Positions 3,109 to 24,728 of a DNA stretch of 64,000 nt are shown here, piece after piece (the stretch's first letter is position 1; each line of letters opens with the position of its first letter). This stretch comes from Actinomycetota bacterium (GTDB taxonomy: Bacteria; Actinomycetota; Acidimicrobiia; Spongiisociales; UBA11373), in assembly GCA_020444505.1 (NCBI GenBank), contig JAHLKU010000003.1, positions 21,824 to 85,823 of the forward strand. The letters are read 5' to 3'. A program made the position numbers and the translations under genes. The notes beneath the pieces are model-generated. The model was given only the letters and a program-made list of their open reading frames with translations, did not search any database and was not told where the DNA came from.

Positions 3109-4124
3109 GACGCCGGGTGCTGGGAGGCTCGGGCATCGTGGTGAGCGAGCTGGCGCTGGGGACGATGGTCTTCGGCGAGGGCCCGCCCCGGGGCACCGAT
3201 CCGCAGGACGCAGCGGCCATCATCCGCCGCTACCTGGAGGCGGGCGGCAACCACCTGGACACCGCCGACGTCTACGCCGGGGGGCGGTCCGAGGAGATCG
3301 TGGGCGAGGCCATCGCCGGCATCCGGGACCAGGTGGTGCTGGCCACCAAGGTGCGGTTCACCACCGGCCCCGGCCCCAACGACCGGGGCCTGTCGCGCCT
3401 CCACATCGTCCGCGGTGTCGAGGACAGCCTGCGGCGGCTGCGCACCGACCACGTGGACCTGCTCTACATGCACACCTGGGATCCGCTCACTCGCATCGAG
3501 GAGTCGCTGCGGGCGTTCGACGACCTGGTGTCGGGCGGCAAGGTGCGGGCGATCGGTGTGTCCAACTTCACGGCCTGGCAGGTGATGAAGTCGCTGGGGA
3601 TCAGCGACCGGTACGGGTGGGCCCGGTTCACCGCCGCCCAGTACCAGCACAGCCTGGTGGTGCGCGACGTCGAGCGGGAGTTCGTGGGGCTGTGCGAGGG
3701 CGAGGGCATCGGCATGGTGCCCTGGAGCCCGCTGGGCGGGGGCTTCCTCAGCGGCAAGTACCGCTCGGGGGATCGGCCCACCGACCCGGCCGCCGGCCGC
3801 CTCGCGACCCAACCGGACGACGACGAGGAGGCCTGGGACCGGCGCGACACCGAGCGCAACTGGGCCATCCTCGCCGAGGTGGAGCGGGTGGCGGCCGAGG
3901 TGGAGGCCACCCCGTCCCAGGTGGCGCTGGCCTGGCTGCTGACCAAGCCGGTCGTGTCGTCGGTGATCGTCGGGGTGCGGACGATGGCGCAGCTCGACGA
4001 CAACCTCGGTGCGGCCGGGCTCGACCTGCCGGCCGGGGCGGTGGCGGCGCTGGACGAGGCCAGCGCTCCCGGCTGGGGGTACCCGTACCGGTTCCTGGGC
4101 CTCTACGGGAGCAGGACGCCGTGA
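3105..4124 (+). CDS. aldo/keto reductase family oxidoreductase
   Basis: The N-terminus (LGGSGIVVSELALGTMVFG ... GGNHLDTADVYAGGRSEEIVG) and the remainder are typical AKR. The start overlaps the previous stop (ATGA). Confidence 0.85.
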   Translation: MRRRVLGGSGIVVSELALGTMVFGEGPPRGTDPQDAAAIIRRYLEAGGNHLDTADVYAGGRSEEIVGEAIAGIRDQVVLATKVRFTTGPGPNDRGLSRLHIVRGVEDSLRRLRTDHVDLLYMHTWDPLTRIEESLRAFDDLVSGGKVRAIGVSNFTAWQVMKSLGISDRYGWARFTAAQYQHSLVVRDVEREFVGLCEGEGIGMVPWSPLGGGFLSGKYRSGDRPTDPAAGRLATQPDDDEEAWDRRDTERNWAILAEVERVAAEVEATPSQVALAWLLTKPVVSSVIVGVRTMAQLDDNLGAAGLDLPAGAVAALDEASAPGWGYPYRFLGLYGSRTP

Positions 4125-4315
4125 CGCTCGTCCTCTGGCTGCTGCTGGCGATCGTGTCGCTGCCGCTGGCGATCCTGGCGTTGATCCTCTGGCCGATCGT
4201 GTGGCTGCTGAGCATCCCGTTCCGGCTGGTCGGCATCTCGGTGCGGGGCGTGCTCGACCTGGTGGAGGCGGTCGTACGCCTCCCCGCCCGGCTGCTGGGC
4301 GGGGGAGGGCGCTAG
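4121..4315 (+). CDS. small hydrophobic membrane protein (hypothetical, 64 aa)
   Basis: GTG start overlapping the AKR stop (GTGA). It has two predicted TM helices (LVLWLLLAIVSLPLAILALILWPIVWLLSIPF). It is in the frame of an otherwise spurious 232-aa track ORF. Confidence 0.35.
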   Translation: MTLVLWLLLAIVSLPLAILALILWPIVWLLSIPFRLVGISVRGVLDLVEAVVRLPARLLGGGGR

Positions 4316-4361: not shown

Positions 4362-5297
4362 ATGACCACGCGCGTCTCCGACCGGCTCGTCTGGGCGGTC
4401 GTCCTCCTCATCACCTTCGGGTGGGGCACGCTCCCGGTGCTGATCCGGGTGGCGCTGCGGGAGGACCTGCGCCCGCTGGTCATCGCCGCAGCACCCTCGA
4501 TCGTGGCGGCCGTCGCCCTGGCGCTGTTCCTGGTGGCGACGCGGCGCCTCCACTCGATCGGCTCCACCGAGGTCCGCATCGGGCTGGCGCTGGCGGCGTT
4601 GAGTGTGGTGCTGCCCAACCTGCTCCGCCCCCTGGCTGCCGAGCACGCGTCGGCGGGGTTCCTGGGGCTCACCTCGGCGCTGGTGCCGCTGACCACGGTG
4701 TTGCTGGCGCACTTCGTCCTCGCCGACGAACGGCTGAAGGCCGCCACGGCGGGCGGCCTGCTGCTCGGCCTGGCCGGCGTGGCGACCCTGGTGCTGTCGG
4801 GCGACTCCGGCCTCGGCGCCAAGGGCAACGTGGTGCTGGCGGCCGCCTACGCGATGGGGAGCGTGCTGTCGGTGTCGCTGTCGGCGGTGTTCGCCAAGCG
4901 CTTCGCCGGCCGGTACTCGGTGATGGGCGTGTCGTGGGTGCAGTTCGCCGCGGGGGCGGCGGTCCTGACCGCGGCAGCGCTGGTGTGGGAGGGGGTGCCG
5001 CCCAATCCGACACTGCTGGGGTGGGGCAGCCTCGTCTTCCTGGGCCTGCTCTGCACGTTCATGCCGGTGGTGCTCTTCTACTGGCTGCTGCAGCACGTCA
5101 CCGTCACCTACTCCACCATCATCGGGTATCTGATCCCGCTGGTGTCGGTGGTGGTGGGGTGGCTGTTCCTGGACGAGACCGTGGGGTGGGGGATCCTCCT
5201 CGGCGGCATCCTGATCCTCGGCGGGGTGGTCGTGACCGACCTCATCCGGGTCCGTGACGCCCGCCGGGAGCGGGCGGCCGCCGGCCGAACCCTCTGA
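4362..5297 (+). CDS. DMT superfamily (EamA-like) transporter
   Basis: 311 aa with about 10 TM segments and an EamA-like duplicated architecture. Confidence 0.75.
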   Translation: MTTRVSDRLVWAVVLLITFGWGTLPVLIRVALREDLRPLVIAAAPSIVAAVALALFLVATRRLHSIGSTEVRIGLALAALSVVLPNLLRPLAAEHASAGFLGLTSALVPLTTVLLAHFVLADERLKAATAGGLLLGLAGVATLVLSGDSGLGAKGNVVLAAAYAMGSVLSVSLSAVFAKRFAGRYSVMGVSWVQFAAGAAVLTAAALVWEGVPPNPTLLGWGSLVFLGLLCTFMPVVLFYWLLQHVTVTYSTIIGYLIPLVSVVVGWLFLDETVGWGILLGGILILGGVVVTDLIRVRDARRERAAAGRTL

Positions 5298-5378: not shown

Positions 5379-6656
5379 ATGCGACAGCCGCTCCGTCTCG
5401 ACGTGCACACCGTCGAGATCGACCAGATCCGCTTCGGGGACCACACCGGGGTGGACGACGGAGCCCTCGTCGTCGACCGCGACGCCCTGGCGGCCCTGAT
5501 CCTCGAGGACCCCCGGATCGCCGGCGTGGACGTCCGGATCGCCCAGCCCGGCGACGACATCCGCATCATCGGGTGCCTGGACGCCGTCGAGCCCCGCTGC
5601 AAGGTGGGAGATGGGTCGGTGTTCCCCGGGTTCCTCGGCGGCATGGAGACCGTCGGGGAGGGCGAGACCCTCCGCCTCGGCGGGGTGGCGGTGCTGGCGT
5701 CGAGCCGGTACCCGCAGCCGTTCTCAGGGCTGCTCCAGGCCCGCGAGGCGGTGGTGGACATGCGGGGGCCCACCGCCAACCTCAGCCCCTTCGGGCGGAC
5801 GCTCAACCTGGTGCTGGCCTACACCCCCAACCCCGACATCGACAACGAGGACTACGACGACGCCATCCGCCGCAGCAACCTGAGGGTGGCCGAGCACCTG
5901 GCTACGCAGGCGCTCGACGCCCCCCGCGCCTCCACCACCACGTTCGACATCTCCGAGCAGGACCCCGACCTCCCCAACGTGGTGTACTTCTACCAGTTGC
6001 AGGGCCAGGGCCCCATGGCCGACACCTACCTCTACGGCCGGGTCATCCACAACCTGGTGCCCACGGTGATGCACCCCAACGAGGCGCTCGACGGTGCCAT
6101 CGTGTGCGGGGTGTACGTGTACGGGTGCTACAAGAACGTCACCTACCTGCACCAGAACAACCCGATCATCTGGGAGTTGCAGCGCCGCCACGGCAAGGAG
6201 TTGAACTTCGCCGGGGTCGTCATCAACCGGGGCCACAACTACACCCAGGAGGACAAGGAGCGGTCCTCGCGGTGGGCGGCCAAGCTGATCGAGTTCCTCG
6301 AAGCCGACGGCGCCGTGTTCACCGCCGAGGGCGGCGGCAACTCGGCGATCGACATGATGCTCGCGGTCCAGTACCTGGAGCAGGCCGGGGTGGAGACCGC
6401 GGTGGTGTCCTCGGAGGCCGCCGGCGAGGACGGCTACGACTTCCCGCTCTTCTACACCGTGCCCGAGGCGGACGCCATCGTCAGCGTCGGGTCGGAGGAC
6501 GAGGTGTTCGACATGCCGGAGGTGGCCGAGGTCATCGGCGGCGACACGCTGTTGGACGGCCAGCCCGCCGCCGGGCCGTACCGGCTCAAGATGTACTTCC
6601 AGTTCTGCGGCACCCAGCAGGTCGGCGGCAACGTGCTCGTGGGGAGGGTCCACTGA
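5379..6656 (+). CDS. grdE: glycine/sarcosine/betaine reductase component B proprotein (GrdE/GrdG/GrdI family; alpha/gamma subunits, pyruvoyl enzyme precursor)
   Basis: N-terminus MRQPLRLDVHTVEIDQIRFGD ... DVRIAQPGDDIRIIGCLDAVEPRCKV parallels GrdE family N-termini. GGGAGG RBS upstream of ATG 5379. The stop overlaps the grdB start (TGATG). Confidence 0.75.
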   Translation: MRQPLRLDVHTVEIDQIRFGDHTGVDDGALVVDRDALAALILEDPRIAGVDVRIAQPGDDIRIIGCLDAVEPRCKVGDGSVFPGFLGGMETVGEGETLRLGGVAVLASSRYPQPFSGLLQAREAVVDMRGPTANLSPFGRTLNLVLAYTPNPDIDNEDYDDAIRRSNLRVAEHLATQALDAPRASTTTFDISEQDPDLPNVVYFYQLQGQGPMADTYLYGRVIHNLVPTVMHPNEALDGAIVCGVYVYGCYKNVTYLHQNNPIIWELQRRHGKELNFAGVVINRGHNYTQEDKERSSRWAAKLIEFLEADGAVFTAEGGGNSAIDMMLAVQYLEQAGVETAVVSSEAAGEDGYDFPLFYTVPEADAIVSVGSEDEVFDMPEVAEVIGGDTLLDGQPAAGPYRLKMYFQFCGTQQVGGNVLVGRVH

Positions 6657-7966
6657 TGGTGAGGGTCGCCCACTACATCAACCAGTTCTTCGCCGGCATC
6701 GGCGGCGAAGACAAGGCCGACCACCCCTTCGAGGTGCGCGAGGGCGCCGTCGGGCCCGGCCGGGCCGTGGAGATGGCGGGCGGTGGCGACGTGGAGATCG
6801 TCCAGACCCTGGTCTGCGGCGACAACGCCTTCCACGCCGACACCGAGGGCACCCTGGCAGCGATCGAGGCGGCCCTCGCCGAGAGCAAGCCGGACCTGCT
6901 CATCGCCGGCCCCGGGTTCAACGCCGGGCGGTACGGCCTGGCGTGCGCCGCGGTGTGCGCCGTCGCCACCGAGAAGCTGGGCATCCCGGCGCTCACCGGC
7001 GTGTACGTCGACGCCCCCGCCGTGGACGTGTACCGCAGCCGGGTGGTGATGGTGCCGACCGGCGACAGCGCGGCGGGGATGAAGGACGCCGTCGAGGGCA
7101 TGCTCCGGGTGGGCCTGCGCCTGGCGGCAGGGGAGCCGCTCGGTCCCGCCGAGGAGGACGGGCGCATCCCCATGGGCTTCCGCAAGGCCGTGGTCACCGA
7201 GACCCCGGTGGCGGCCCGGGTCGTGGACATGCTGATGGCCAAGCTGCGGGGCGAGCCGTTCACCAGCGAGGTCGCCCTGCCCGAGCCGGCCGAGGCGGTG
7301 CCGCCGGCGCCGCCGGTGGCCGACCTGTCCGGGGCGGTGGTGGCGGTGGTCACCGACGGCGGCCTGGTGCCGGTGGGCAACCCCGACGGCATCGAGTCGT
7401 CGAGCGCCACGAAGTGGGCCCGCTACCCGATCGACGACCTGGTCCGCAACGACGACCCCTCGTTCATGTCCATCCACGCCGGGTACGACTCGCAGTGGGT
7501 GGACGCCGACCCCGACCGCCTGGTGCCCATCGACGCCCTGCTGGACCTGGAGGCCGAGGGCGTGATCAAGGAGGCGCACCCCTACTACTACGTCACCACC
7601 GGCACCGGCACCACCGTCACCCACGCCGAGCGGATGGGGGAGGAGATCGCCAAGCAGTTGATCTCCGACGGCGTCCACGCCGTGCTGGTCACCAGCACCT
7701 GAGGCACCTCCACGCGTTGCGGTGCAACGCTCGCAAAGATGATCGAGAAGGCCGGCATCCCGGCGGCACACCTGGCGGCGATGACGTCGATGGCCAAGAT
7801 CGCCGGGTCGAACCGGATCATCTCCTCCGGCCTCATCCCCCATCCGGTCGGCGACCCGTCGCGCTCTCCGGAGGAGGAGCTGAAGTGGCGCACCGGGCAG
7901 GTCCGCAAGGCCCTGAACGCCGCGGCGACGCCGCTCGACGAGGCCCTGATCTTCCCGGACTGGTAA
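6656..7966 (+). CDS. grdB: glycine/sarcosine/betaine reductase selenoprotein B (GrdB/GrdF/GrdH family) with in-frame UGA (Sec) at 7700..7702
   Basis: The ORF 6656..7702 ends in ...VLVTST-UGA. Read-through continues in frame (UGTSTRCGATLAKMIEKAGIPAAH ... PHPVGDPSRSPEEELKW...) into track ORF 7739..7966. The total is 436 codons, the typical GrdB size. The flanking motif STU-GT-x-TRCGAT matches the family Sec site. A SECIS-like hairpin lies at 7714..7730. Confidence 0.8.
7714..7730 (+). promoter_or_regulatory. SECIS-like stem-loop downstream of grdB UGA (GCGTTGC-GGU-GCAACGC)
   Basis: Perfect 7-bp inverted repeat beginning 11 nt after UGA 7700..7702, with GGUG in the apical region. Spacing and position match bacterial SECIS elements. 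Confidence 0.55.
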
Positions 7967-7982: not shown

Positions 7983-9410
7983 ATGATCCAACCCGCCATC
8001 CTCCACACCGCCTACGCCCTGGCCCACGCGCCGGACTTCGTCCGCTACGGCTCCAAGCCCACCAGGGAGCTGCCGGCCAACCCCGGGCTGCTGGAGGAGA
8101 TGACGGCGGCGCTGCGGCCCTGGGACGAGGTGGTGGCCTACCCGCCGAACCAGGTGTTCATCGGCAACCTGAGCCCCGACGAGCTCGCCGCCACCCCGCG
8201 GCCCTGGTACGAGCACCTGGTCCCCGACGCCTCGCCCATCGGCCCGTGGGGGCGCATCGTCACCCAGGCGGCGCTCTACGGCCTCATGAAGCTGTGCGAC
8301 GACTTCGACCTCCTGACGATCACCGAGGCGGTCGCCGCCGAGGCCCGCGAGGAGCTCACCCGCTTCGAGCACCGGCGGGACCGCATCACCGGCGTCCCGC
8401 CGGAGGACCTGGCGGCGCTCATCGGCAAGCACGACGGCCTCACCCTGTACCACCGCGGCGAGGTCGCGGGGTTCCTGCGCACCGCCCACGAGCAGGACCC
8501 CTCGCTGGACGCCCATGTGCTGTTCGAGAACCTGGCCTGCAAGGCGACGGCGGTGCTGGCCGTCAACGACGCGTTCGATGGTGGCCCCATCGGCCCCGAA
8601 GACGTCGACTACCTGCTCAACACCGGCGAGGAGGCCGTCGGCGACCGCTACCAGCGCGGCGGCGGCAGCCTGTCCAAGGCCGTCGGCGAGGTGGTGGGGT
8701 GCCTCAACGCCACCGGGTCGGACATCAAGGCGTTCTGCTCGGCCCCGGTGCACGCCATCATCTCCGCCTCGGCGATGGTGGCCTCCGGCCTCCACAAGTA
8801 CGTGGTGGTGCTCGGGGGCGGGTCGCAGGCGAAGATGGGCATGAAGTTCCGGGCCCACCTCCGCAACGGCGTCCCGGTGATGGAGGACTGCCTGGCGTCG
8901 ATGGCGTTCGTCGTCGGGCCGGACGACGGCACCGGCATGCGGGTGCGGCTCGACGTCACCGGCAAGCATCCCATCGGCGCCGGGTCGTCGGCCCAGCACG
9001 TGTACCAGGCGCTGGTGGTGGAGCCGCTGGAGCGGGCCGGCATGACCATGACCGACGTGGACCGCTACGCCGTCGAGATGCACAACCCCGAGATCACCGA
9101 ACCGGGCGACAGCGGCGACGTCCCCAAGACCAACTACCGCACGCTGGCGGCGATGGCGGTGCTGCGGGGCGAGATCGAGCGGGACCAGATGGACGAGTTC
9201 TCCGCCACCCACGGCATGCCCGGGTTCTCGCCCACCCAGGGCCACATCCCCGCCGGGGTGCCGTTCCTCGGCCACGCCCTGGCGGCCATGCGGCGCGGCG
9301 AGATGGACAACGCGATGATCGTCGCCAAGGGCAGCCTGTTCCTCGGCCGGATGACGCAACTCGTCGACGGGGTGTCGTTCCTCGTCGAGGCGCCGTCCGA
9401 GCCGTCGTGA
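7983..9410 (+). CDS. grdC: glycine reductase complex component C, beta-subunit-like protein (GrdC family, thiolase/FabH-like fold)
   Basis: Motifs PNQVFIGNLSPDELA, QRGGGSLSKA, GCLNATGSDIKAFCSAPVHA, YAVEMHNPEITEP, GHIPAGVPF and GSLFLGRMTQLVDGVSF resemble the GrdC family. ATG 7983 is preceded by GAGGGA. The track start at 7971 is an upstream GTG. Confidence 0.65.
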   Translation: MIQPAILHTAYALAHAPDFVRYGSKPTRELPANPGLLEEMTAALRPWDEVVAYPPNQVFIGNLSPDELAATPRPWYEHLVPDASPIGPWGRIVTQAALYGLMKLCDDFDLLTITEAVAAEAREELTRFEHRRDRITGVPPEDLAALIGKHDGLTLYHRGEVAGFLRTAHEQDPSLDAHVLFENLACKATAVLAVNDAFDGGPIGPEDVDYLLNTGEEAVGDRYQRGGGSLSKAVGEVVGCLNATGSDIKAFCSAPVHAIISASAMVASGLHKYVVVLGGGSQAKMGMKFRAHLRNGVPVMEDCLASMAFVVGPDDGTGMRVRLDVTGKHPIGAGSSAQHVYQALVVEPLERAGMTMTDVDRYAVEMHNPEITEPGDSGDVPKTNYRTLAAMAVLRGEIERDQMDEFSATHGMPGFSPTQGHIPAGVPFLGHALAAMRRGEMDNAMIVAKGSLFLGRMTQLVDGVSFLVEAPSEPS

Positions 9411-9447: not shown

Positions 9448-9915
9448 ATGGATCTGAAGGGAAAGCGCATCGTCGCCATCGGCGAGCGCGAGGGCATCAA
9501 CGGCCCCAGCCTGAAGCTGCTCGCCGAGTCGGCGGGTGCGACGGTGGTCTTCAGCGTCACCCAGTGCTTCGTCTGAACGGCTGGTGGAGCCATGGACCTG
9601 GACGACCAGGCGAACGTGAGTCGCCTGGCCGAGGAGTCCGGGACCGACGACATGCTCGTCGTCCTGGGCCAGCCGGATCCCAACAGTGCGGGCCTCTTCG
9701 CAGAGACCGTCACTCGAGGCGATCCGACCTGGGCAGGTCCGTTGGCCGGAGTCCCGTTGGGGCTCCCCGTGTATCACATCCTCGAAGAGGAGATCAAGGA
9801 GTCGATGGACCCCGACCTGTATCAGGAGCACGTGGGCCTGATGGAGTTGTCGGCGGACGTCGACGAGATCGTGAAGTGGGTCAAGTTCTACCGCGAGGGC
9901 GGCGGCGAGGCCTGA
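9448..9915 (+). CDS. grdA: glycine/sarcosine/betaine reductase selenoprotein A (GrdA) with in-frame UGA (Sec) at 9574..9576
   Basis: Strong RBS GAAGGAGG 8 nt upstream of ATG 9448. The N-terminal ORF MDLKGKRIVAIGEREGINGP ... VVFSVTQCFV ends at UGA. It continues in frame as TAGGAMDLDDQ ... ETVTRGDPTWAGPLAGVPLGLPVYHILEEEIKE (track ORF 9592..9915). The CFV-U-TA(A/G)GAMDL motif is the canonical GrdA Sec site. Confidence 0.85.
9579..9591 (+). promoter_or_regulatory. candidate SECIS apical hairpin downstream of grdA UGA (GGCU-GGUGG-AGCC); uncertain
   Basis: Short 4-bp stem with a GGUGG loop starting 2 nt after the UGA. Alternative stems exist at 9597..9610 and 9606..9628. The exact SECIS fold cannot be resolved by eye. 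Confidence 0.25.
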
Positions 9916-9931
9916 CAGTCAGGAGACGACG

Positions 9932-11395
9932 ATGTCCCAGGAGATCATGAAGCTCGACATGTTCGTCCACGGCGAGTGGCGCGCCGGATCGACCGGCGAC
10001 GTCGTCGAGGTGATGAACCCGGCCAAGGACGAGGTGCTCGCCACCGTGCCCGACGGCGGCGCCGAGGACCTCGACGCCGCGATGGCGTCGGCGGCCGAGG
10101 GCCTGAAGGTGTGGCGCGCCACCCATCCCCGCACGCGGGCCCAGGTCATCGCCAAGATGGCCGCGACCCTGCAGGAGCGGGCCCAGGAGTACGCCGAGTT
10201 GTACAGCCTCAACTCGGGCGGCTCGATCGGCACCGGGCTGTGGACCATGTACGACGTGGCCGGCCGGCGCTTCGAGTACTACGCCGGGCTCGCCGACAAG
10301 GTCCGGGGCGACACGTTCGTCACCCCCGGCGAGTTCCTCAGCTACACGCTGCGGGAGCCGGTGGGCATCACCGGGCACATCATCCCGTGGAACGGGCCGC
10401 TGTGGATCGGCAGCCGCACCATCGCCCCGGCGCTGGCCGCAGGGAACTCGGTGGTCGTGAAGCCGTCGAGCGAAGCGCCCGTCACCCTGCTCAAGTTCGC
10501 CGAGATGGCCGTGGAGTGCGGCCTGCCGCCCGGGGTGCTCAACGTGGTCACCGGCCGGGGCAGCGGCATGGGCGACCTGTTCACCCGCCACGAGGCCCTC
10601 GACGGCATCTACTTCACCGGGTCCACGTGGACCGGGCGGAAGATCCTCGCGAACACCGCGACCACCAACGTGCGGACGGTGATGGAACTGGGCGGCAAGT
10701 CGCCCAACATCGTGTTCGCCGACGCCGACATGGAGGCTGCCCTCGACGGGGCGATCATGGCGATCTTCGCCAACTCGGGGCAGATCTGCGTGGCCGGGTC
10801 CCGGCTGCTGGTGCAGGCGTCCATCCACGACGAGTTCGTGGAGCGCCTCGCCGCCAAGGCCGCCGAGATCACCATCGGCGGCCCCGAGGCGAACGCCCTC
10901 ATGGGCCCGCTGATCACCTCCGCCCAGCGCGAGAAGGTGCTCGAGTACATCGCCTCCGGCAAGGAGGAGGCCGACCTGGTGACCGGCGGCGGCGTCCCGG
11001 ACGACCCGGCGCTGCAGAAGGGCTACTTCGTGGCGCCGACGATCTTCGACGGCGTGCCCAACACCGCCCGGATCGCCCGCGAGGAGATCTTCGGGCCGGT
11101 GCTCTCCGTCACCTCGTTCGAGGACTTCGACGAGGCGATCACCCTGGCCAACGACACCGAGTACGGCCTGGCGTCGGCGGTGTGGACCGGCGACGTCGCC
11201 ACGGCGCACAACGCAGCACAGGCGCTGGAGGCCGGCCAGGTGTACATCAACCACTACTACACGGCCGCCTTCGAGACGAGCCGGTCGCCGTACAAGGCGA
11301 GCGGCCACGGCATGAGCGAGGGCCCCGACGCCATCTACGAGTACCTCAACCAGAAGGCCGTCAGCGTCAAGCTGGGCGAAGGCGAGGGGTGGTAG
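9932..11395 (+). CDS. NAD(P)-dependent aldehyde dehydrogenase family protein
   Basis: 487 aa with an ALDH catalytic Cys motif (GQICVAGSRLLV), ELGGKSP, and the N-terminal Rossmann GxxxxG region. Confidence 0.85.
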   Translation: MSQEIMKLDMFVHGEWRAGSTGDVVEVMNPAKDEVLATVPDGGAEDLDAAMASAAEGLKVWRATHPRTRAQVIAKMAATLQERAQEYAELYSLNSGGSIGTGLWTMYDVAGRRFEYYAGLADKVRGDTFVTPGEFLSYTLREPVGITGHIIPWNGPLWIGSRTIAPALAAGNSVVVKPSSEAPVTLLKFAEMAVECGLPPGVLNVVTGRGSGMGDLFTRHEALDGIYFTGSTWTGRKILANTATTNVRTVMELGGKSPNIVFADADMEAALDGAIMAIFANSGQICVAGSRLLVQASIHDEFVERLAAKAAEITIGGPEANALMGPLITSAQREKVLEYIASGKEEADLVTGGGVPDDPALQKGYFVAPTIFDGVPNTARIAREEIFGPVLSVTSFEDFDEAITLANDTEYGLASAVWTGDVATAHNAAQALEAGQVYINHYYTAAFETSRSPYKASGHGMSEGPDAIYEYLNQKAVSVKLGEGEGW

Positions 11396-11418
11396 CGCAC
11401 CGGGCAGCGGAAGCGTGT

Positions 11419-11438
11419 ATGGTCTGACCATAAGACCA
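11419..11438 (+). promoter_or_regulatory. FadR-type GntR operator-like palindrome ATGGTCtGACCAT with a third GACCA half-site
   Basis: Perfect 6-1-6 palindrome containing the TGGTCnGACCA core, in a relatively AT-rich 97-bp gap upstream of the adh-like gene (GTG 11492). The related site 5343..5361 lies upstream of grdE. Confidence 0.5.
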
Positions 11439-11491
11439 AGACGGCCCGCGGTGGCAGGCGCCGCGGCCGACCGAGACGATCTGGAGGCGTT

Positions 11492-12511
11492 GTGAAGGTT
11501 GCAGTGTTCACCGGGGTAGGCAGCGTGGAGATCCGGGAGGAACCGGATCCGGTGGCCGGCCCCCAGCAGGTCGTCATCGAGGTGGCCGCGTGCGGGATCT
11601 GCACGTTCGAGCGGCGCCTCTTCGCGGGCGACAAGCAGTGGTACCCGGTGAACCCGGGTCACGAGGCCTCCGGCACGGTCGTCGCCGTCGGCGAGGCGGT
11701 CGACGGTCTCCCCGGCTCGCCGCAGGTGGGCGACCGGGTCACCTTCGACCTCCTCACCCGCTGCGGCACCTGCAACCAGTGCCGCCGGGGCAAGTCGTCG
11801 CTGTGCCGGATGCGGCAGGGCCGCGTTCTCAGCGACGGCACGGTCTCGTTCGGTGGGTTCGCCGGCAAGGTCGCCATCGACGCCAAGTCGGTGTACCCGA
11901 TCGGCGATGCCCCGTTCACCCACGCCGCCATGGGCGAGCCGATCGCCTGCTGCGTGCACTCCATCCGCCAGGGCGGCCTGCTGCCCCGCGACCGGGTGGC
12001 CATCATCGGCGGCGGCCTGATGGGCCGCCTCCACCTGGCGCTGGCCCGCCTGGAGGGCGCCGGCCCGATCGGCGTCATCGACGTCTCGGAGCAGCGCCTC
12101 GCCGAGGCGACCGCCGCCGGCGCCGACTGGGTGGCCACCCCCGAGACCGCCCTCGAGGTGGGCGGCAAGCAGGACGTGGTCTTCGTCACCGCCATGGCAG
12201 GGGTGGACCTGGCCGTGGAGATGGCCGACCTCGGCGGCACGGTGGTCCTGTACAGCGCATTCGACAAGGACCTGCCGGCCACCGTCGGCGCGGACAAGTC
12301 GCACCGCGAGGAGGTCGCCATCGTCGGGGCCTTCAGCCAGGAGCCCGCCGACTGGCGCACCGGCTCGGCCCACATCCGCAGCGGCGTCATCGCCGACGCC
12401 CTCGATGCGCTGGTCACCGCCGAGTACCCGTTCTCCCAGGTGGAGGACGCCCTCAAGCTGGTGACCTCCGAGCCCACGTACCGCGTGTTCGTCGAGCCCG
12501 AGAGCGAGTGA
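11492..12511 (+). CDS. zinc-dependent alcohol dehydrogenase (MDR family; threonine/sorbitol dehydrogenase-like)
   Basis: Catalytic Zn ligands (C..H..E) and a structural Zn motif CGTCNQCRRGKSSLC. Rossmann motif GGGLMG. GTG start with GGAGG upstream. Confidence 0.8.
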   Translation: MKVAVFTGVGSVEIREEPDPVAGPQQVVIEVAACGICTFERRLFAGDKQWYPVNPGHEASGTVVAVGEAVDGLPGSPQVGDRVTFDLLTRCGTCNQCRRGKSSLCRMRQGRVLSDGTVSFGGFAGKVAIDAKSVYPIGDAPFTHAAMGEPIACCVHSIRQGGLLPRDRVAIIGGGLMGRLHLALARLEGAGPIGVIDVSEQRLAEATAAGADWVATPETALEVGGKQDVVFVTAMAGVDLAVEMADLGGTVVLYSAFDKDLPATVGADKSHREEVAIVGAFSQEPADWRTGSAHIRSGVIADALDALVTAEYPFSQVEDALKLVTSEPTYRVFVEPESE

Positions 12512-13824
12512 TGCCGGCAGAGGTCGTCGCCGGCGTCGACGTGGGCAGCAGTGCGGCGCGCGCCGTCGCGATCGATCGCGACGGCGCCGTGGTGGCCTCC
12601 TCCCGGGCCCCGTACCCCGCACACGACGGCAGCCTGGCCGGCGAGGTGGACCCCGCGGTCTGGCTCGCCGGCCTCGTCGCCGCCCTCGACGGGCTCGGTG
12701 CGCGGCCCCTGGCGCTCGGCGCCGGCGGCCACGGCCCCACCACGGTCGCCTCGACCGGCGAGCTGGCGCTGACGTTCCGCCACCCCGCCGGCGCCACCGA
12801 GGGCCCGGTGGGCCAGCACGCCGCCCACCTGCGGGTGTTGCGGGACCGCCTCGGCGACCACGTCGAGCCCCGCCAGATGTGGGACCACCTGCTGGCCCGT
12901 CTCGGTGGGGACCCCTCCACGCAGAGCATGTGGCCGGGTGAGGAGCCCCTGGAAGGCTTCGGGTCGCCGATCCCGGCCGGCACCGCCGTCGGGACCAGCG
13001 CCGGCGACCACGGCGAGCCGGAGGGGATGACCCTGGTGCCCGGCGCCAACGACGCCTACATGACCTCGTGGGCGTCGGCCATCGACACCCCCGGCCGGGC
13101 CTTCGACCCGGGCGGCAAGACCGGCGGGCTCGGCGTGGCGATCCGCGCCGAGGGGGAGCACGCCGAGATCGCCAAGTTCGGCATGCCGAGCCACGTGCCG
13201 GGCGTCGCCATCGTGGGGGGCCCGGTGGCCAGCCACGGGGCGATGATGGACTGGTGGTCGGCCGTCACCGGCCGCCCCGTCGCGGAACTGCTGGACCTGG
13301 CCGCCGACGTCGAGCCCGGCTCGCACGGCGTGATGGTGCTGCCGTTCCTCGAGGGGGAGCGTGCGCCCCGCTGGAACCTGGGCCTGCGGGCCGAGATCAC
13401 CGGCATCGGCGCCGAGACCGGCGTCGGAGTGCTGACCAGGGCGCTGGTGGAGTCCACGGCCTACGGCCTCGCCCACATCGCCCGCGACCTGGCCGGGCAC
13501 GGCATCGCGCTGGAGCGGGTCGTGTCGAGCGGCGGCCCGGCCCGCAGCCCGCTGTGGACGTCGATCAAGGCTGCTGTGCTGGACGTGCCGGTGGATGTGC
13601 CGGACTGCGACGAGATGAGCGCCTACGGGGCGGCTCTGGCCGCCGGGGCGGCGCTGGGATGGTGGCCGCGCCCGGGGGAGGGGGTCCCCGGCGACTGGCC
13701 GATGCCGGAGGTGACCACCTACGAGCCGAAGCCGCTCGAGGTGTATCGCAAGGGATTGGACCGGTTCATCGAACTCGGCGACGAGGCGGTGGCCCGGCTC
13801 GAGAGAAGCCAACCGAACGAGTAA
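12511..13824 (+). CDS. FGGY-family carbohydrate kinase (xylulokinase/LsrK-like)
   Basis: N-terminal VAGVDVGSSAARAVAID and C-terminal FGGY motifs (SGGPARSPLWTSIKAAVLDVPV ... AYGAALAAG). The start overlaps the upstream stop. Confidence 0.75.
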   Translation: MPAEVVAGVDVGSSAARAVAIDRDGAVVASSRAPYPAHDGSLAGEVDPAVWLAGLVAALDGLGARPLALGAGGHGPTTVASTGELALTFRHPAGATEGPVGQHAAHLRVLRDRLGDHVEPRQMWDHLLARLGGDPSTQSMWPGEEPLEGFGSPIPAGTAVGTSAGDHGEPEGMTLVPGANDAYMTSWASAIDTPGRAFDPGGKTGGLGVAIRAEGEHAEIAKFGMPSHVPGVAIVGGPVASHGAMMDWWSAVTGRPVAELLDLAADVEPGSHGVMVLPFLEGERAPRWNLGLRAEITGIGAETGVGVLTRALVESTAYGLAHIARDLAGHGIALERVVSSGGPARSPLWTSIKAAVLDVPVDVPDCDEMSAYGAALAAGAALGWWPRPGEGVPGDWPMPEVTTYEPKPLEVYRKGLDRFIELGDEAVARLERSQPNE

Positions 13825-13833
13825 GGAGAACGC

Positions 13834-14607
13834 ATGGAATACATGTCCTCGGCCATCGGGGCCGCCAAGACCCGCCGGGCCTCCCGGTTCCTCGAGGAGG
13901 ACGGCCGCGGCTTCCTGGTGGCCATCGACATGCAGTCGGCGTCGGGATCGGGCCCCGACCTGGACGTCGTCGAGAAGATCGCAGCCGGCGGCCCCAACGG
14001 CATCCTGGTGTCCTGGCAGATCGCTCGCCGCTACCCCGAGGCGTTCCGCAACTGCGGCATGATCCTCCGCATCGACGGCACCACCACGATGCTCGGGAAC
14101 TACGGCGCCGGCGACCAGTTCGCCCAGATGTACGAGATCGAGATGGCCGCCCGCATCGGCGCCGACGCCGTGGTCTGCATGGCGTTCCCCGGCGCCGACG
14201 ACGACGTCGTCGGCATGCGCAAGCTGGTCGCCATGGTCAACGAGGCCGAGAAGGTCGGCATGCCGGTGATCGCCGAGTCGATCCCCGGGTCGTGGGCCAA
14301 GACCGTCCCGTGGGACGCCGAGCACATCGCCAAGGCCGCCCGCATCTGCGTCGAGGTGGGCGCCGACGCCATCAAGACGATGATGCCGGAGGACCCCTCG
14401 GAGATCCCCGATGTCATCGCCAACATCGAGGCCCCGGTGTTCTGCCTGGGCGGTCCGAAGAAGGAGACCGAGGACGAGGCGGTCGAGTACGCCCGCACCG
14501 TCGTGGCCGCCGGTGCCAGCGGCATCGCCTTCGGCAGGAACGTGTTCGGGGCCAAGGACCCGACCGCCATGGTGCAGCGCCTGTACGAAGCCGTCCACGG
14601 CGCCTGA
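13834..14607 (+). CDS. class I aldolase, DhnA/FbaB family (DeoC/LacD-type TIM barrel; LsrF-like)
   Basis: 257 aa with DhnA-family motifs (GFLVAIDMQ ... RIDGTTTML ... GADAVVCMAFPG ... GMPVIAE ... FCLGGPKKETEDEAVEYARTVVAAGASGIAFGRNVF). Confidence 0.7.
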   Translation: MEYMSSAIGAAKTRRASRFLEEDGRGFLVAIDMQSASGSGPDLDVVEKIAAGGPNGILVSWQIARRYPEAFRNCGMILRIDGTTTMLGNYGAGDQFAQMYEIEMAARIGADAVVCMAFPGADDDVVGMRKLVAMVNEAEKVGMPVIAESIPGSWAKTVPWDAEHIAKAARICVEVGADAIKTMMPEDPSEIPDVIANIEAPVFCLGGPKKETEDEAVEYARTVVAAGASGIAFGRNVFGAKDPTAMVQRLYEAVHGA

Positions 14608-14618
14608 GGAGGAGCGAC

Positions 14619-15134
14619 ATGGCAGAAGAAGCCTTCACCGAAGCCTGCGTCGAGGTGATGGCGCGCACCGCCTCGGCGGTCGCCATCCTGACGCTGGAGG
14701 ACGGCGACGGCGAGAAGCATGGCATGACGATCACGTCGCTGTCGTCGGTCTCGTCGGAGCCGCCGTCGGTGGTGGTCTGTGTGGGCGAGGGCGCCTCGTC
14801 GCACCGCTGGCTCGTGCCAGGCGCCCGGTTCGGCGTGAGCCTGCTGGGCGCCGGCCAGGTGCCGTACTCCCTGGGGTTCTCCTGGGCGAAGTCCGACGAC
14901 CCGTTCGCCGACTTCCCGTGGGAGCGCGCCGAGGACGGCACGCCCTGGCTCAGCGAGGCCGCCGCCCACATGATCTGTGAGGTGGAGCAGGTGACCCCGT
15001 ACCACGGCAGCGCCGTGGTCATGGCCCGCGTGGTCGGCTGTGGGGTGCACAAGGACGAGACCCTGGTCTACTGGCGACGCAAGTACTTCGACGGCCTCAC
15101 CGAGGCCGAAGGAGGGGTGACCGGCACGTGGTGA
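14619..15134 (+). CDS. flavin reductase family protein (HpaC/RutF-like)
   Basis: 171 aa with flavin-reductase-like domain motifs (AVAILTLEDGDG ... GMTITSLSSVSSEPPSVVVCV). GAGGAGGAG RBS. It lies in the frame of a largely spurious 688-aa track ORF. Confidence 0.7.
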   Translation: MAEEAFTEACVEVMARTASAVAILTLEDGDGEKHGMTITSLSSVSSEPPSVVVCVGEGASSHRWLVPGARFGVSLLGAGQVPYSLGFSWAKSDDPFADFPWERAEDGTPWLSEAAAHMICEVEQVTPYHGSAVVMARVVGCGVHKDETLVYWRRKYFDGLTEAEGGVTGTW

Positions 15135-15616
15135 CCCCGGGCGGAGGCGCGAGGAGCGGGCCGGGCAGGACCCGGCTGACCCACCTCGCCCTCCGCGTCC
15201 ACGACCTGGAGCGCTCGATCGACTGGTACGAGCGGTACACGCCGATGCGCACCCTCAAGCGCTTCTCGGACGCCTACGGCGTGGGTGCCTGGCTGGCCGA
15301 CCCGGCCGACGGCGCGTGTCCGTTCACCATGGCCCTGTCGCAGTTCGACCCGGACAAGGATCCCTTCGCCTACGCCCCGGCTGCGGTGCTGGGACCCTTC
15401 GCCCACCTCGGGTTCGAGGTCGGCAGCCGCGACCAGGTGGATGCCATCGCCGCGATGGCCGAGGCGGAGGGCATCCTCAGCTACCCGGTCACCGAGATGC
15501 CGTATCCCATCGGGACGATCTGCTTCGTGGAGGACCCCGACGGCAACACCGTCGAGTTCTCCTTCGGGCAGGGCACCTATCCGATCTGGGACGAGGAGTG
15601 GGGGAGCGAAGCATGA
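15128..15616 (+). CDS. VOC family protein (glyoxalase/bleomycin-resistance/dioxygenase fold)
   Basis: LTHLALRVHDLERSIDWYERY ... GFEVGSRDQVDAI ... FVEDPDGNTVEF are typical VOC beta-alpha-beta-beta-beta motifs. The exact start is uncertain. Confidence 0.65.
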   Translation: MVTPGGGARSGPGRTRLTHLALRVHDLERSIDWYERYTPMRTLKRFSDAYGVGAWLADPADGACPFTMALSQFDPDKDPFAYAPAAVLGPFAHLGFEVGSRDQVDAIAAMAEAEGILSYPVTEMPYPIGTICFVEDPDGNTVEFSFGQGTYPIWDEEWGSEA

Positions 15617-16386
15617 GTGCCGACCGCCCCTTCGGGCCCGTGGAACGAGCCACCGTCCCCGAGCAGGTGCGCGACGACATCCACCGCCGCATCATCAGCG
15701 GCGAGATCCCGCCCGGCTCGCCGCTGCCGGCGGAGCGGGTGCTGGCGGAGCAGTTCGCCGTCGCCCGCACCTCGGTGCGGGAGGCCATCCAGGGGCTCAT
15801 CGCCCTCGGCGTCATCGAGCGGCGCGGGAACCGCTCCTACGTCGCCGAGCGCCTCCCCGACGCCGAGCTGCACCGCCCCGACGGCAGCAAGCGCTCATTG
15901 CGCGAGGCCCTGGAGGCGCACCACGTGCTGGAGCGCTCGCTGTTCGAGATGGCGGCCGCCCGGGCCACGATGCGGGAGCGCTCCGAGGCCCTGGCGCTGG
16001 CCCGCCGCCCCGCCCCCGCCGACGTCGGGGAGTTCCTCATCGTCGAGCGCCAGTTCCACGCCGCCATCGCCGGGGCGTGTGACAACCCGGTGCTGGTGGA
16101 GGTGTACGGCCGGATCATGGACGTGCTCATGGGCACCGACGAGGTGGTGGCCCTCGTGCTGGGGGTGGCGCCCGGCGAGGACCCGGCGCCCGCGATAGCC
16201 AAGGCCGCCTCCGAGCACCTGCGCATCGCCGAGGCGTACGTGGACCAGGACCTCACGAGGATGATGGAGGAGTGGGAGCACCACCGCGGGCCTTCGGCCT
16301 GGCGGCAGGCGGGCCGGGTGCGCCGCCCGGCCGGCCCCACCAGGGCGAGGGAGGCCTGGGGGCTCGAGAGGACGGTGGGGTCGTGA
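15613..16386 (+). CDS. GntR family transcriptional regulator, FadR subfamily (FCD domain)
   Basis: N-terminal winged HTH (PLPAERVLAEQFAVARTSVREAIQGLIALGVIERRGNRSYV) followed by an all-helical FCD-like domain. The start overlaps the upstream stop (ATGA). Confidence 0.75.
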   Translation: MSADRPFGPVERATVPEQVRDDIHRRIISGEIPPGSPLPAERVLAEQFAVARTSVREAIQGLIALGVIERRGNRSYVAERLPDAELHRPDGSKRSLREALEAHHVLERSLFEMAAARATMRERSEALALARRPAPADVGEFLIVERQFHAAIAGACDNPVLVEVYGRIMDVLMGTDEVVALVLGVAPGEDPAPAIAKAASEHLRIAEAYVDQDLTRMMEEWEHHRGPSAWRQAGRVRRPAGPTRAREAWGLERTVGS

Positions 16387-21574: not shown

Positions 21575-22348
21575 TCACCCTTCCAGGGCCAGCAGGGCCG
21601 CCCCGTGGGCGCCGGTCAACTGGGGATGCTCGGGGACGATCACCTCGGTGTCGAGCGCCTCGCCGATCATCGCCCGGACCCCGGCGTTGCGGGCCACGCC
21701 GCCCGACATCATCAGCGGCGGTTCCCAGCCGACGGTGCGGACCATGGCGACCAGGCGCACCGTCAGCGAGCGGTGGAGGCCCTTGAGGATGGCGTCCACC
21801 TCGGCGCCGCGGGCGAGCAGCGAGATGATCTCCGACTCGGCGAAGACGGTGCAGGTGGAGGTGATCTGCTCCTCGCTGCCGGGGGCAGCCACCCGGCCGC
21901 CGAGGTCGGCGACGTCCAGGCCGAGGCGGCCGGCGGTGTACTCCAGGAACCGGCCGGTGCCGGCGGCGCACTTGTCGTTCATCACGAAGTCCGCCGGCCG
22001 GCCGTCGGGGCCGATGCGGATGACCTTGCTGTCCTGGCCGCCGATGTCCACCAGGGTCCCGGCCCGGCCCAGGTCGTCGAACACGCCCCTGGCGTGGCAC
22101 GTGATCTCGGTGACCCGCCGGTCGGCGCACTCCACCAGGCGGCGGCCGTAGCCGGTGGCGACGCAGCGGGCGCCGGGGGCCACGTCGTGGGCGGAGCGCA
22201 GGCCGTCGAGCATCGCCGCCGTCTGGTCGGCGATGCGGGGGAGGGCCTGCTCCAGGGCGGTGGCGACGACGGCGCCGGAGGGGTCCACCGCCACCGCCTT
22301 GCAGGTGGTGGACCCGGCGTCGATGCCGATGCCGGCGATGGCGGTCAC
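21575..22348 (-). CDS. 2-hydroxyacyl-CoA dehydratase activator ATPase (BadF/BadG/BcrA/BcrD/HgdC family)
   Basis: N-terminus [22 protein letters not shown] (ASKHA-fold phosphate-1 motif), then ...[14 protein letters not shown] ... [11 protein letters not shown] start overlapping the upstream stop (GTGA). The long N-terminal extension in track ORF 21575..23596 is spurious. Confidence 0.8.
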
Positions 22349-23655: not shown

Positions 23656-24728
23656 GCCAGCGTCTCCACGAACGCCTCGATGCGGGTGATCACCCGGTGC
23701 CCCAGCTCGCCGCCCAGCTCCACCTCGACGTGGGCCACGGGGTAGCCGGCGTCGCCCAGGTGGCGGCGCAGCAGCGGCACGTCGAACAGCTCCGGCTCGC
23801 AGAACGCCACGTCGTAGATCAGCATCCCCTTCGCCCCGGCGGCCGCCATCCGCCCGGCCAGCGCCGCGGCGCGCGCGGCGATCGGCGTGCCCCGGGTGGG
23901 GTCGGGCGGGGAGCCGAGCAGGCGGTCGGCCAGGCGCTCGATCGGGTCGGCGGCGTCCGACGGCGGGTAGAGGCGCCGCGCCCCGGCGGCCAGGTCGTCG
24001 GCCACCACCCGGGCCCCCGCCTCGGCCAGGTGGTCGAACAGGCTCATCGGCTCCGGCACGATGCCCGACAGCAACAGCCCGATCCCGCTCGGCGCCGTGC
24101 CGCGGGGCACGGCGGCCGCCGCCTCCACGAACTCCTCGGCGGCCAGGTACTCGCGGCTGCGGACCACCTCGTAGAACTCACGGTCGCCCACCGCCAGTGC
24201 CTCCCGGTCCCGGTAGAGGGCCGCCAGCGTCTCGTCGGCCGCCTCCTCGGCGGCGAGCGCATCCGCCCAGCCGGCATCGGTGGGCCGCCCCCCGGCGATC
24301 CCAGCCAGGCGGTCCGACAGCCGGCGCAACTCGGCGACCAGGTACTCGCGGTCGGTGGGCCGGCCCGCCCGGGGCAGGTACAGGGTCAGGACGTGCTGGG
24401 AGGGCTGCAGGAAGTCGCCGGCCACCGACCCCATGCCCTGCAGCGCGTCGCAGGTGTGGGGGACCAGCAGCACGCCGGCCCGCTCCAGGCCGCCCCGCAG
24501 CAGGAACGACGTCGCCCGCACCACGATGTCGCAGGTGTACGCCTGGAAGTGGCGGCCGCCCTCGTCCCGGGGCACGCCCGGCGGCCCCCACACCTCCACC
24601 GGGTGGAAGCCGTGTGCCCGCAGCAGGGCCCTCGGGTAGTGGTAGGGGAGCACGGCGGCGATCCGCTGCCCGCGCGCCTCGGCCCGGGCGATCGCCTCGC
24701 TGCGGCTGGGCCTGTGGGTGACGGTCAC
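23652..24728 (-). CDS. 2-hydroxyacyl-CoA dehydratase family protein, second subunit (HgdB-like)
   Basis: 358 aa, same family. The stop overlaps the start of the downstream subunit (ATGA). Together with 21575..22348 it forms a three-gene operon. Confidence 0.65.

Follow-up and report, generated by a model that had tools for sequence, protein, structure and literature searches.

The window, i.e., the whole 64-kb stretch of DNA that we analyzed (GC content 73%), carries on its forward strand a cluster consisting of a grdE-like gene, a grdB-family gene, grdC, and grdA; all coordinates given here are positions within this window. The first gene (5379..6656; PF09338 7.7e-120) encodes a 425 aa GrdE/GrdG/GrdI-like partner subunit of protein B, for which the best NCBIfam match, GrdG at 305 bits, is far under the cutoff of 780. 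It is followed by the GrdB-family selenoprotein B gene (6656..7966), whose ATG at 6656 overlaps the TGA of the upstream GrdE-like gene as TGATG, and by grdC (7983..9410), which encodes the component C beta subunit (NF040746 595 bits, cutoff 450) with 64-79% identity to clade relatives. The second selenoprotein gene of the window, grdA (9448..9915), lies 1.5 kb downstream and encodes selenoprotein A in 155 codons with an in-frame UGA of its own at 9574-9576 (codon 43, CFVU motif); its product matches PF04723 over the full length (7.3e-58) and NF040748 with 198 bits (cutoff 130). The gene cluster is apparently translationally coupled.

Upstream of the cluster is an EamA-family (DMT) transporter gene (4362..5297; Pfam EamA 6.5e-33), which occupies the same position in the related loci L003, L007, and L164-L166. 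Directly after grdA is a betaine-aldehyde-dehydrogenase-like aldehyde dehydrogenase gene (9932..11395; PF00171 5e-157; TIGR01804 468 bits, below the cutoff of 669), which is syntenic in L001-L005, L008, and L166, and the conserved cluster also includes a Zn-dependent alcohol dehydrogenase (ADH), an FGGY kinase, and a DhnA/DeoC-type aldolase. As NCBIfam searches of the downstream ADH, kinase, aldolase, flavin reductase, and glyoxalase genes returned no equivalog-level match, we do not propose a pathway.

Reading frame and probable selenocysteine codon

The GrdB-family gene starts with the ATG at 6656 and ends with a TAA at 7964-7966, and its sole interruption is an in-frame TGA at 7700-7702. 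The original prediction, made from the sequence letters, held that an ORF ending at this TGA continues in the same frame through a second ORF to give a 436-codon protein of GrdB length, and both the coordinates and the length are confirmed. After the TGA the frame continues GTSTRCGATLAKMIEKAGIP..., the mechanically called ORF at 7739-7966 is contained in this same frame, and the whole comprises 436 sense codons with the UGA counted. The read-through product belongs to the selenoprotein B family from end to end, matching PF07355 with 436 bits (cutoff 22; 2e-130) and TIGR01918 with 465 bits (cutoff 65), the latter placing residues 3-433 on model positions 1-430 of 431. As predicted, the part encoded after the UGA aligns with the C-terminus of the family. 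A sequence search of the PDB found no solved relative. Three assemblies, made independently from separate sequencing runs, give exactly the 1311 nt of the gene, and the TGA is therefore not an assembly error.

If the UGA were a real stop, the locus would be a split gene or pseudogene yielding a 348 aa protein, perhaps with a separate 75 aa product from the ATG at 7739. Public gene callers annotate the locus in exactly this way (348 + 75 aa, with NCBI entry MCB2222834.1 at 348 aa), which is the truncation that had been anticipated, and TGA is the normal stop of this genome, ending 45 of the 62 predicted genes in the window that end in a stop. However, the family model alignments cross the UGA, and in relatives a single frame covers all of residues 1-436. 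The stretch of 87 codons 3' of the UGA keeps its length in most relatives and shows 62-93% identity inside the clade, and its GC3 is 0.91; compared with the closest relative, L166, 30 of the 37 nucleotide differences in this stretch fall at third positions, with 26 synonymous against 6 non-synonymous codons. These codons evolve as protein. Moreover, no peptide of the region is more conserved than that encoded by the 12 codons from the UGA to the ATG at 7739 (GTSTRCGATLAK), which would go untranslated if translation ended at the UGA.

The conservation of the codon itself weighs against a real stop as well. Among the matches listed, the homologous codon is TGA at 164 of 164 sites, which belong to 160 loci in Acidimicrobiia, Chloroflexota, and Bacillota. 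The window's site is in register (TST-U-GT), and a Cys codon is never seen. The matches listed by the metagenome scan were mostly Bacillota homologues with only three close relatives, and closer ones, of which one (P0030) contributed gene calls alone, were obtained via exact-protein look-ups. The UGA codon is also where most of the 120 best database homologues stop, with lengths of 346-351 aa, and three full-length database entries carry W at this position, as expected if UGA is translated with code 4. Because TGA ends more of the window's genes than either other stop codon, the genetic code is not reassigned. Taken with the purifying selection and conserved length of the downstream frame, this makes a true stop at 7700-7702 exceedingly improbable, and the UGA is almost certainly a genuine selenocysteine codon (residue 349, motif TST-U-GTSTRCGAT) accompanied by an insertion hairpin.

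The annotation needs fixing, since MCB2222834.1 and all metagenomic calls for the clade are without the Sec residue and the 87 residues that follow it. Public gene calls likewise split grdA into 42 + 107 aa. With both genes truncated, the enzyme would be misread or discounted whenever the metabolism of these Acidimicrobiia MAGs is reconstructed.

The hairpin downstream of the UGA

The predicted perfect stem was found as described: the sequence GCGTTGC-GGT-GCAACGC at 7714-7730 forms a 7-bp stem (GCGUUGC/GCAACGC) with a GGU loop, separated from the UGA by an 11-nt spacer (7703-7713), and includes a conserved 6-bp core at 7715-7729. The hairpin alone has a folding energy of -9.0 kcal/mol. A stem-loop just 3' of the UGA with a small, G-containing apical loop is what characterizes bacterial SECIS elements. 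Perfect 7-bp hairpins nevertheless occur 8-20 nt downstream of 2.3% of the window's 481 TGA trinucleotides, so that a bare hairpin of this kind after a TGA is only mildly improbable by chance. Folding 7695..7760, a check suggested along with the original prediction, did not bear the hairpin out: the 66-nt minimum free energy (MFE) fold omits it and shows no gain in stability over shuffles (z = +0.43), and with the upstream bases included other pairing is preferred. As MFE is uninformative in coding sequence of 73% GC, we relied on comparative evidence. Another perfect 7-bp hairpin lies at 7682-7698, just 5' of the UGA; no relative conserves it, and it was treated as chance.

The comparative evidence has to be weighed against the view that the hairpin is a mere by-product of coding the invariant peptide RCGAT, with no RNA function. 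All stem nucleotides do fall in codons whose residues are invariant, four of the seven stem pairs never vary, and the MFE z-score and the roughly 2% chance rate given above are both in keeping with a by-product. In contrast, synonymous choice is frozen in the stem only. Across 146 distinct sequences, the stem codons are CGU in 144, UGC in 146, GCA in 146, and ACG in 117, whereas the Cys codon three codons before the stem Cys, serving as an internal control, is UGU in 114 and UGC in 17. CGU and GCA are frozen despite being rare codons in a 73% GC genome (in the window CGU makes up 2.4% of Arg codons and GCA 3.6% of Ala codons, with GGU at 4.0% of Gly codons). The wobble position varies outside the stem, at the loop Gly (GGN) and the flanking Thr, and it is likewise free downstream of the UGA in grdA.

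RNAalifold applied to the homologues recovered the helix at 7714-7730 and no other. In the alignment, 94% of cells are paired and three pairs show changes on both sides. Of 500 shuffles, none came up to the real alignment in paired fraction or covariation score, and two did so in the number of pairs changed on both sides. In the locus L076, two pairs are altered on both sides with pairing retained (AGA...UCU), and a compensatory change is also found at the closing pair. The TGA at all 164 sites and the invariant synonymous positions of the stem lift the hairpin far above chance; selection acts on its RNA structure beyond protein coding, and a coding by-product is very unlikely.

In a permissive scan, the Rfam family RF01990 (SECIS_4) matched 7703..7739 over its full length (model positions 1-38 of 38) with 28.3 bits (E = 5.2e-5 over 101 nt, 1.1e-3 over 2.2 kb), while an Rfam scan of the whole window at the gathering threshold (38 bits for this family) gave no match. 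With the frozen stem codons, the recovered helix, and this full-length though sub-threshold alignment, the claim of a SECIS-like hairpin is upheld, and the hairpin is very probably the known grdB SECIS. For grdA, which retains TGA at 141 of 141 homologous sites, we found two candidate hairpins, no Rfam match, and no frozen wobble sites downstream of its UGA.

By analogy with known systems, SelB-GTP carrying Sec-tRNA(Sec) would bind the small G-containing apical loop and stem as the ribosome nears the UGA 11 nt upstream, and would outcompete release factor 2 there. Being made of codons for the invariant R-C-G-A-T, the hairpin is under selection at synonymous positions and not via free covariation. 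We assume that the organism is able to decode Sec. A tRNA scan of the 64-kb window found no tRNA at all, hence no selC, and no selA, selB, or selD Pfam families are among its ~60 predicted genes; Sec machinery has been reported from another Acidimicrobiia order (bioRxiv 10.64898/2026.04.03.716425). The lack of these genes within the window would suit a UGA that is read through as another residue, e.g., suppressed as Cys or Trp after loss of the Sec machinery, and so would the protective UxxCxxC motif having lost its middle Cys. However, the SECIS is strongly constrained in this clade too, grdA also retains its UGA, and no homologue has changed the UGA to a Cys codon, though such changes would be expected after loss of the machinery. 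We therefore regard non-Sec read-through as most unlikely, and hold with high confidence that this is a single selenoprotein B-family gene in a cluster with grdA and grdC, with its UGA recoded as Sec 349 and the hairpin acting as the SECIS.

Sec recoding in this family is well known, genes of this kind are routinely cut short by gene callers, and the mechanism is textbook; in this respect the finding is correct but ordinary. The lineage is predicted to be selenium-dependent and carries a Grd-type reductase, a system usually tied to strictly anaerobic Bacillota, and we found no paper in the searched literature tying Acidimicrobiia to glycine or betaine reductase. The only potentially new part lies in the Sec motif, the partner cysteine, the missing grdD, trxB, and grdX, and the conserved aldehyde dehydrogenase neighborhood.

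Departures from canonical glycine reductase

The motif around the stop had been said to match the family Sec site. This stands as far as the UGA falling at the Sec codon is concerned, but the motif itself, U-G-T-S-T-R-C, reads UxxSxxC with the second Cys kept, and not the family UxxCxxC (PMC6778437, PMC13188914). Ser occupies the middle position in L166 also and Gly in the remaining clade, and Cys is found there in 131 of the 146 distinct sequences. The partner subunit departs at a second site. In C. difficile GrdE, a proprotein, the pyruvoyl-precursor residue is Cys242 (PMC9908766), and Tyr246 of the window's partner (6114-6116) aligns with it. In an alignment with 125 homologues, the window's 'CGVYVYGCYKN' stands against the canonical 'SGNCVSACDKN'; this column is Cys in 114 of the 126 and Tyr, His, or Phe in the clade.

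The label grdB holds in its broad family sense and not in the glycine-specific one. The product scores 413 bits with TIGR01917 (GrdB), below the cutoff of 602, and is similarly below cutoff for GrdF (475 vs 800), GrdH (NF040795, 449 vs 775), and PrdB (83 vs 300). A canonical glycine-specific GrdB with a pyruvoyl-dependent partner would agree with the established family membership and the grdE-like/grdB/grdC/grdA cluster, and JGI names many homologues 'glycine reductase'. Against this, in addition to the equivalog scores, the Tyr in place of Cys242, and the UxxSxxC motif, the protein is alike 43-48% identical to GrdB-type and GrdI-linked Firmicute paralogues, and grdD, trxB, and grdX lie near the gene in none of 16 clade loci, as opposed to 104, 118, and 94 of the other loci, respectively. 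These three genes and thioredoxin were not found in the 64-kb window, and grdD, trxB, and grdX could lie elsewhere in the genome. A canonical enzyme is accordingly improbable; the gene is most likely not the canonical glycine-specific GrdB, and its branch departs from the textbook enzyme.

The GrdB-family protein would have three partners, namely GrdC, the other selenoprotein GrdA, and the GrdE-like subunit encoded next to it, and together they may reductively cleave a substrate of the X-CH2-COOH type. Clustered at 90% identity, the relatives in Acidimicrobiia and Chloroflexota (57-79% identity) form more than 100 groups. We tentatively suggest, as one possibility, that they constitute a widespread, uncharacterised Grd branch with a pyruvoyl-independent protein B that, with no linked GrdD, thioredoxin reductase, or GrdX, uses GrdA and GrdC on a substrate other than glycine or sarcosine, the X-CH2-COOH form of which would come from the adjacent aldehyde dehydrogenase. 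If so, betaine is one candidate substrate, and a new compound, as fluoroacetate was in the case of FarBE, is another.

Comparison with known systems

The GrdB proteins of Bacillota (e.g., Peptoclostridium acidaminophilum, Clostridium sticklandii, and C. difficile) belong to the same Pfam and TIGR family at ~436 aa, have Sec at the same codon in STUGT...TRCGAT and the same SECIS core, CGUUGC-GGN-GCAACG, and likewise adjoin a GrdE-type partner, GrdC, and GrdA. In contrast to these, with which identity is only 45-48%, the window's protein has UxxSxxC, its partner lacks Cys242, grdD, trxB, and grdX are not nearby, and its host genome is Acidimicrobiia-like with 73% GC.

The betaine reductase GrdH/GrdI resembles the system described here in that the partner GrdI is reportedly also without the pyruvoyl-forming cysteine (PMC10838667). 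The betaine-aldehyde-dehydrogenase-like gene in the window's cluster adds to the likeness, and JGI names some homologues 'betaine reductase'. However, the GrdH model score is below cutoff, identity to the GrdI-linked paralogues is 43-44%, and these retain UxxCxxC and have a different partner motif, 'SGSFMPASSKW'. The fluoroacetate reductase FarB/FarE of Cloacibacillus (Synergistota) is a GrdB/GrdE-type pair acting on a non-amine X-CH2-COOH substrate, and offers a precedent for an altered Cys motif after Sec together with a non-proprotein partner (PMC10838667). FarB reportedly lacks both CxxC cysteines (PMC10838667), whereas the window's protein keeps the second, and the FarE model scores only 156 bits, where the cutoff is 675.

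At the RNA level, the consensus of RF01990 reads as the grdB SECIS; its alignment begins at the first base past the UGA, and the 6-bp stem and the GGU loop are identical. The match stays under the gathering score, the model's outer 2-bp helix is not formed in the window, the flanks differ (Ser and Leu-Ala codons), and G7714-C7730 adds a seventh base pair to the stem. The minimal fdhF SECIS element has an 11-nt spacing. The E. coli fdhF SECIS, the SelB-dependent paradigm, is also a coding-region stem-loop just 3' of its UGA with a small G-containing apical loop (PMC1088965), but its sequence is unrelated to that of the window's hairpin, which has a 3-nt loop and no evident bulged U.

A continuous reading frame across the UGA at 7700-7702

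The selenoprotein B gene starts at ATG 6656, which shares bases with the stop codon of the gene before it (TGATG), and its frame reaches TGA at 7700-7702 and then stays open to TAA at 7964-7966, giving 436 sense codons with the UGA decoded. The mechanical ORFs at 6656-7702 and 7739-7966 are both parts of this single frame, 6656-7966, and a frame check found every coordinate accurate in the original prediction, which had joined the two ORFs through the UGA into one 436-codon gene. The 1311 nt recur without a single difference in three assemblies that are independent of one another and come from different sequencing runs, which rules out an assembly error as the source of the stop codon.

Family searches were run on the product with Cys put at the UGA position. 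The read-through product matched Pfam GRDB at 2e-130 and the NCBIfam model TIGR01918 ([quoted passage not shown]) at 465 bits (cutoff 65), and because residues 3-433 align to model positions 1-430 of 431, the alignment crosses the UGA. With tblastn against genome and metagenome contigs, query residues 1-436 were matched in one frame, and across 160 fetched loci TGA stands at all 164 homologous sites and a Cys codon at none. This UGA occupies the Sec position of the family, as had been proposed.

A split gene is what the public gene calls give (348 + 75 aa), as the original prediction had foreseen, and in NCBI the 348-aa truncation, with the name "family reductase selenoprotein B" already given to it, is MCB2222834.1. 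Most of the best 120 matches in a search of 5.8 billion proteins are 346-351 aa long, so these entries are cut at the same codon. However, the 12-codon stretch that separates the UGA from the internal ATG at 7739 (GTSTRCGATLAK) encodes the best-conserved peptide of the region, with which a split gene is incompatible. The 87 codons downstream of the UGA align with the family C-terminus, as predicted. Most relatives have the same number of them, and identity is 62-93% inside the clade formed by the window's cluster and its Acidimicrobiia/Chloroflexota relatives; against one of these, L166, 30 of 37 nucleotide differences fall at third positions, with 26 synonymous and 6 non-synonymous codons. 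The frame 6656-7966 is therefore one gene and not two. Separately, in the homologous locus L005 the C-terminal part of selenoprotein B diverges at about 7250-7345 and has 12 extra codons; this resembles a frameshift, either real or from an assembly error.

Three full-length database entries have W at the UGA position, as expected if the UGA was translated with code 4. In the window, whose GC content is 73%, TGA is the commonest ordinary stop (45 of the 62 genes that end in a stop); hence the code has not been reassigned.

The hairpin at 7714-7730 as a SECIS element

The sequence GCGTTGC-GGT-GCAACGC lies at 7714-7730, 11 nt downstream of the UGA, exactly where a SECIS-like hairpin had been described. 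By thermodynamics alone it is unremarkable: by itself the hairpin has -9.0 kcal/mol, the minimum free energy fold of 66 nt is uninformative (z = +0.43) with other pairing preferred once upstream bases are included, and by chance a perfect 7-bp hairpin follows about 2.3% of the window's TGA trinucleotides at 8-20 nt. The comparative evidence decides its identity.

The stem is made of the codons of an invariant peptide, R-C-G-A-T, and so might be a mere by-product of coding. Pairing in the stem joins every wobble base to a first codon position that is itself fixed, so selection on the structure should leave synonymous sites frozen, and such sites were found. Among 146 distinct sequences, the stem Arg codon is CGU in 144, Cys is UGC and Ala is GCA in all 146, and Thr is ACG in 117 and ACA in 27, while the loop Gly codon varies (GGU/C/G/A), all four Thr codons occur directly 5' of the core stem, and the Cys that stands three codons earlier is UGU in 114 and UGC in 17. 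Among the codons of the window's own genes, the share of CGU for Arg is 2.4%, of GCA for Ala 3.6% and of GGU for Gly 4.0%. Wobble sites downstream of the UGA of grdA vary freely, so frozen wobble positions are not a general trait of such genes.

RNAalifold on 25 diverse sequences predicted this hairpin as the sole helix. Counting pairs across the alignment, 94% of cells are paired and in three pairs both bases have changed; of 500 shuffles, not one matched the observed paired fraction or covariation score and two matched the both-sides count, and slid registers were all much worse. In L076, a Clostridiaceae homologue, positions 7042-7092 encode R-C-G-A-S with AGA...UCU replacing CGU...ACG, so that both sides of two stem pairs are altered and pairing is kept, which is a naturally occurring compensatory mutation of the SECIS of grdB.

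The Rfam model RF01990 (SECIS_4), with a consensus that is plainly that of Firmicute grdB, aligned over its full length (1-38 of 38) to 7703-7739, beginning at the base after the UGA. The match reached 28.3 bits, with E = 5e-5 locally and 1e-3 over 2.2 kb, and fell short of the gathering score of 38; the shortfall comes from differing flanks and from the lack of the outer 2-bp helix that the model has. Bacterial SECIS elements have been described as having a small apical loop that contains G, and the loop GGU agrees with this (PMC1088965). We conclude that the hairpin is a SECIS: its RNA structure is under selection, and its distance from the UGA is the right one. A second perfect 7-bp hairpin at 7682-7698 (GUGCUGG-UCA-CCAGCAC) ends one base upstream of the UGA; it is conserved in no relative and so is probably due to chance.

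The UGA is very probably recoded as Sec through the SECIS at 7714-7730; a split gene, a coding by-product and non-Sec read-through are, even taken together, improbable. By the established bacterial pathway, SelB-GTP-Sec-tRNA(Sec) would bind the hairpin as the ribosome arrives at the UGA, and Sec349 would be inserted.

The gene cluster and its second selenoprotein gene

The plus-strand cluster comprises an EamA transporter (4362-5297), a GrdE/G/I-like partner (5379-6656, PF09338), the selenoprotein B gene, grdC (7983-9410; NF040746, 595 bits against 450), grdA (9448-9915), an aldehyde dehydrogenase (ALDH, 9932-11395) and, at 11504-16386, a Zn-ADH, an FGGY kinase, a DhnA/DeoC-type aldolase, a flavin reductase, a glyoxalase-fold protein and a GntR regulator. 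None of the genes from ALDH to GntR (9932-16386) reaches an NCBIfam equivalog cutoff, and their order after grdA is conserved across the clade, where the order EamA, grdE-like, grdB-like, grdC, grdA, ALDH, ADH, kinase, aldolase recurs; an Anaerolineales MAG keeps it up to ALDH. A 64-codon ORF at 4121-4315, between the aldo/keto reductase and EamA genes, has no match in Pfam or NCBIfam; the homologous loci L161-L163 and L166 have a gene call of 63-64 aa at the corresponding position.

The cluster holds a second Sec gene. grdA has its own in-frame UGA at 9574-9576 (codon 43, motif CFVU), its product matches Pfam GRDA over the full length and NF040748 at 198 bits (cutoff 130), and TGA stands at all 141 homologous sites in the fetched loci; public gene calls cut it into 42 + 107 aa. 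For its SECIS there was no Rfam match, and two candidate hairpins lie at 9579-9591 (GGCU-GGUGG-AGCC) and 9597-9610 (CCUGG-ACGA-CCAGG). By analogy, Sec349 would be the nucleophile of protein B and pass a carboxymethyl-type group to Sec43 of GrdA, with GrdC presumably involved in forming the acyl intermediate.

The window contains no tRNA, and selA, selB, selD, thioredoxin, thioredoxin reductase and grdD are absent among the roughly 60 predicted window genes scanned, so the organism's Sec machinery is inferred. A preprint reports selA, selB, selC and selD throughout another Acidimicrobiia order (bioRxiv 10.64898/2026.04.03.716425), so the Sec trait exists in the class. On the minus strand, 21575-24728 encodes a BcrAD/BadFG-type activator ATPase and two 2-hydroxyglutaryl-CoA dehydratase D-component-like proteins, oxygen-sensitive radical enzymes that hint at an anaerobic or facultative lifestyle of this Acidimicrobiia-like organism.

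A non-canonical branch of selenoprotein B

The recoding event is textbook: the family has a name, Rfam has a curated model, and NCBI has already named the protein, though in truncated form; the residual interest lies in the branch, on which we found no paper in the library searched. The closest genomes by tblastn are Acidimicrobiia MAGs (69-75% identity), Candidatus Spongiisociaceae (64-65%) and the Anaerolineales MAG (62%), whereas Bacillota GrdB proteins are about 47% identical. Firmicute GrdB-type and GrdI-linked paralogues are both 43-48% identical to the window protein and about 45-52% identical to each other. The product passes the broad subfamily model only and falls below every substrate-specific equivalog (GrdB 413 bits against a cutoff of 602, GrdF 475/800, GrdH 449/775, PrdB 83/300).

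The Sec motif is UxxSxxC, not UxxCxxC, with Ser352 encoded by UCC at 7709-7711; the first Cys is also Ser in L166 and L167 and Gly in the rest of the clade. UxxCxxC is regarded as conserved and protective (PMC6778437, PMC13188914), and a published analysis took its absence as a sign of a pseudogene, yet the clade without the full motif has many members, and purifying selection acts on it. Near the gene, grdD, trxB and grdX are lacking in all 16 clade loci (the 64-kb window, L001-L008, L081-L083, L161 and L164-L166); among other loci, 104 have grdD, 118 trxB and 94 grdX, in most Bacillota loci adjoining grdB. Given the failed equivalogs and three altered hallmarks, the gene is, by its sequence, placed in the selenoprotein B family and outside glycine reductase GrdB proper, so that the label grdB holds for the family and not for the glycine-specific enzyme. 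The substrate of this branch may differ and its partner set may be reduced; component C may do without GrdD, or grdD may lie in another part of the genome.

The GrdE-like partner (5379-6656) has Tyr246 (6114-6116) at the column of the cysteine of Firmicute GrdE, reading CGVYVYGCYKN against SGNCVSACDKN, and its relatives have His or Phe there. The Firmicute cysteine is residue 242 in the numbering of the homologous locus L012, in agreement with the C. difficile pyruvoyl peptide, mapped to aa 242-266 (PMC9908766). Tyr at this column suggests that the B component needs no pyruvoyl group and that its partner is no proprotein, as with GrdI and FarE, partners reported to have lost the pyruvoyl-precursor cysteine (PMC10838667).
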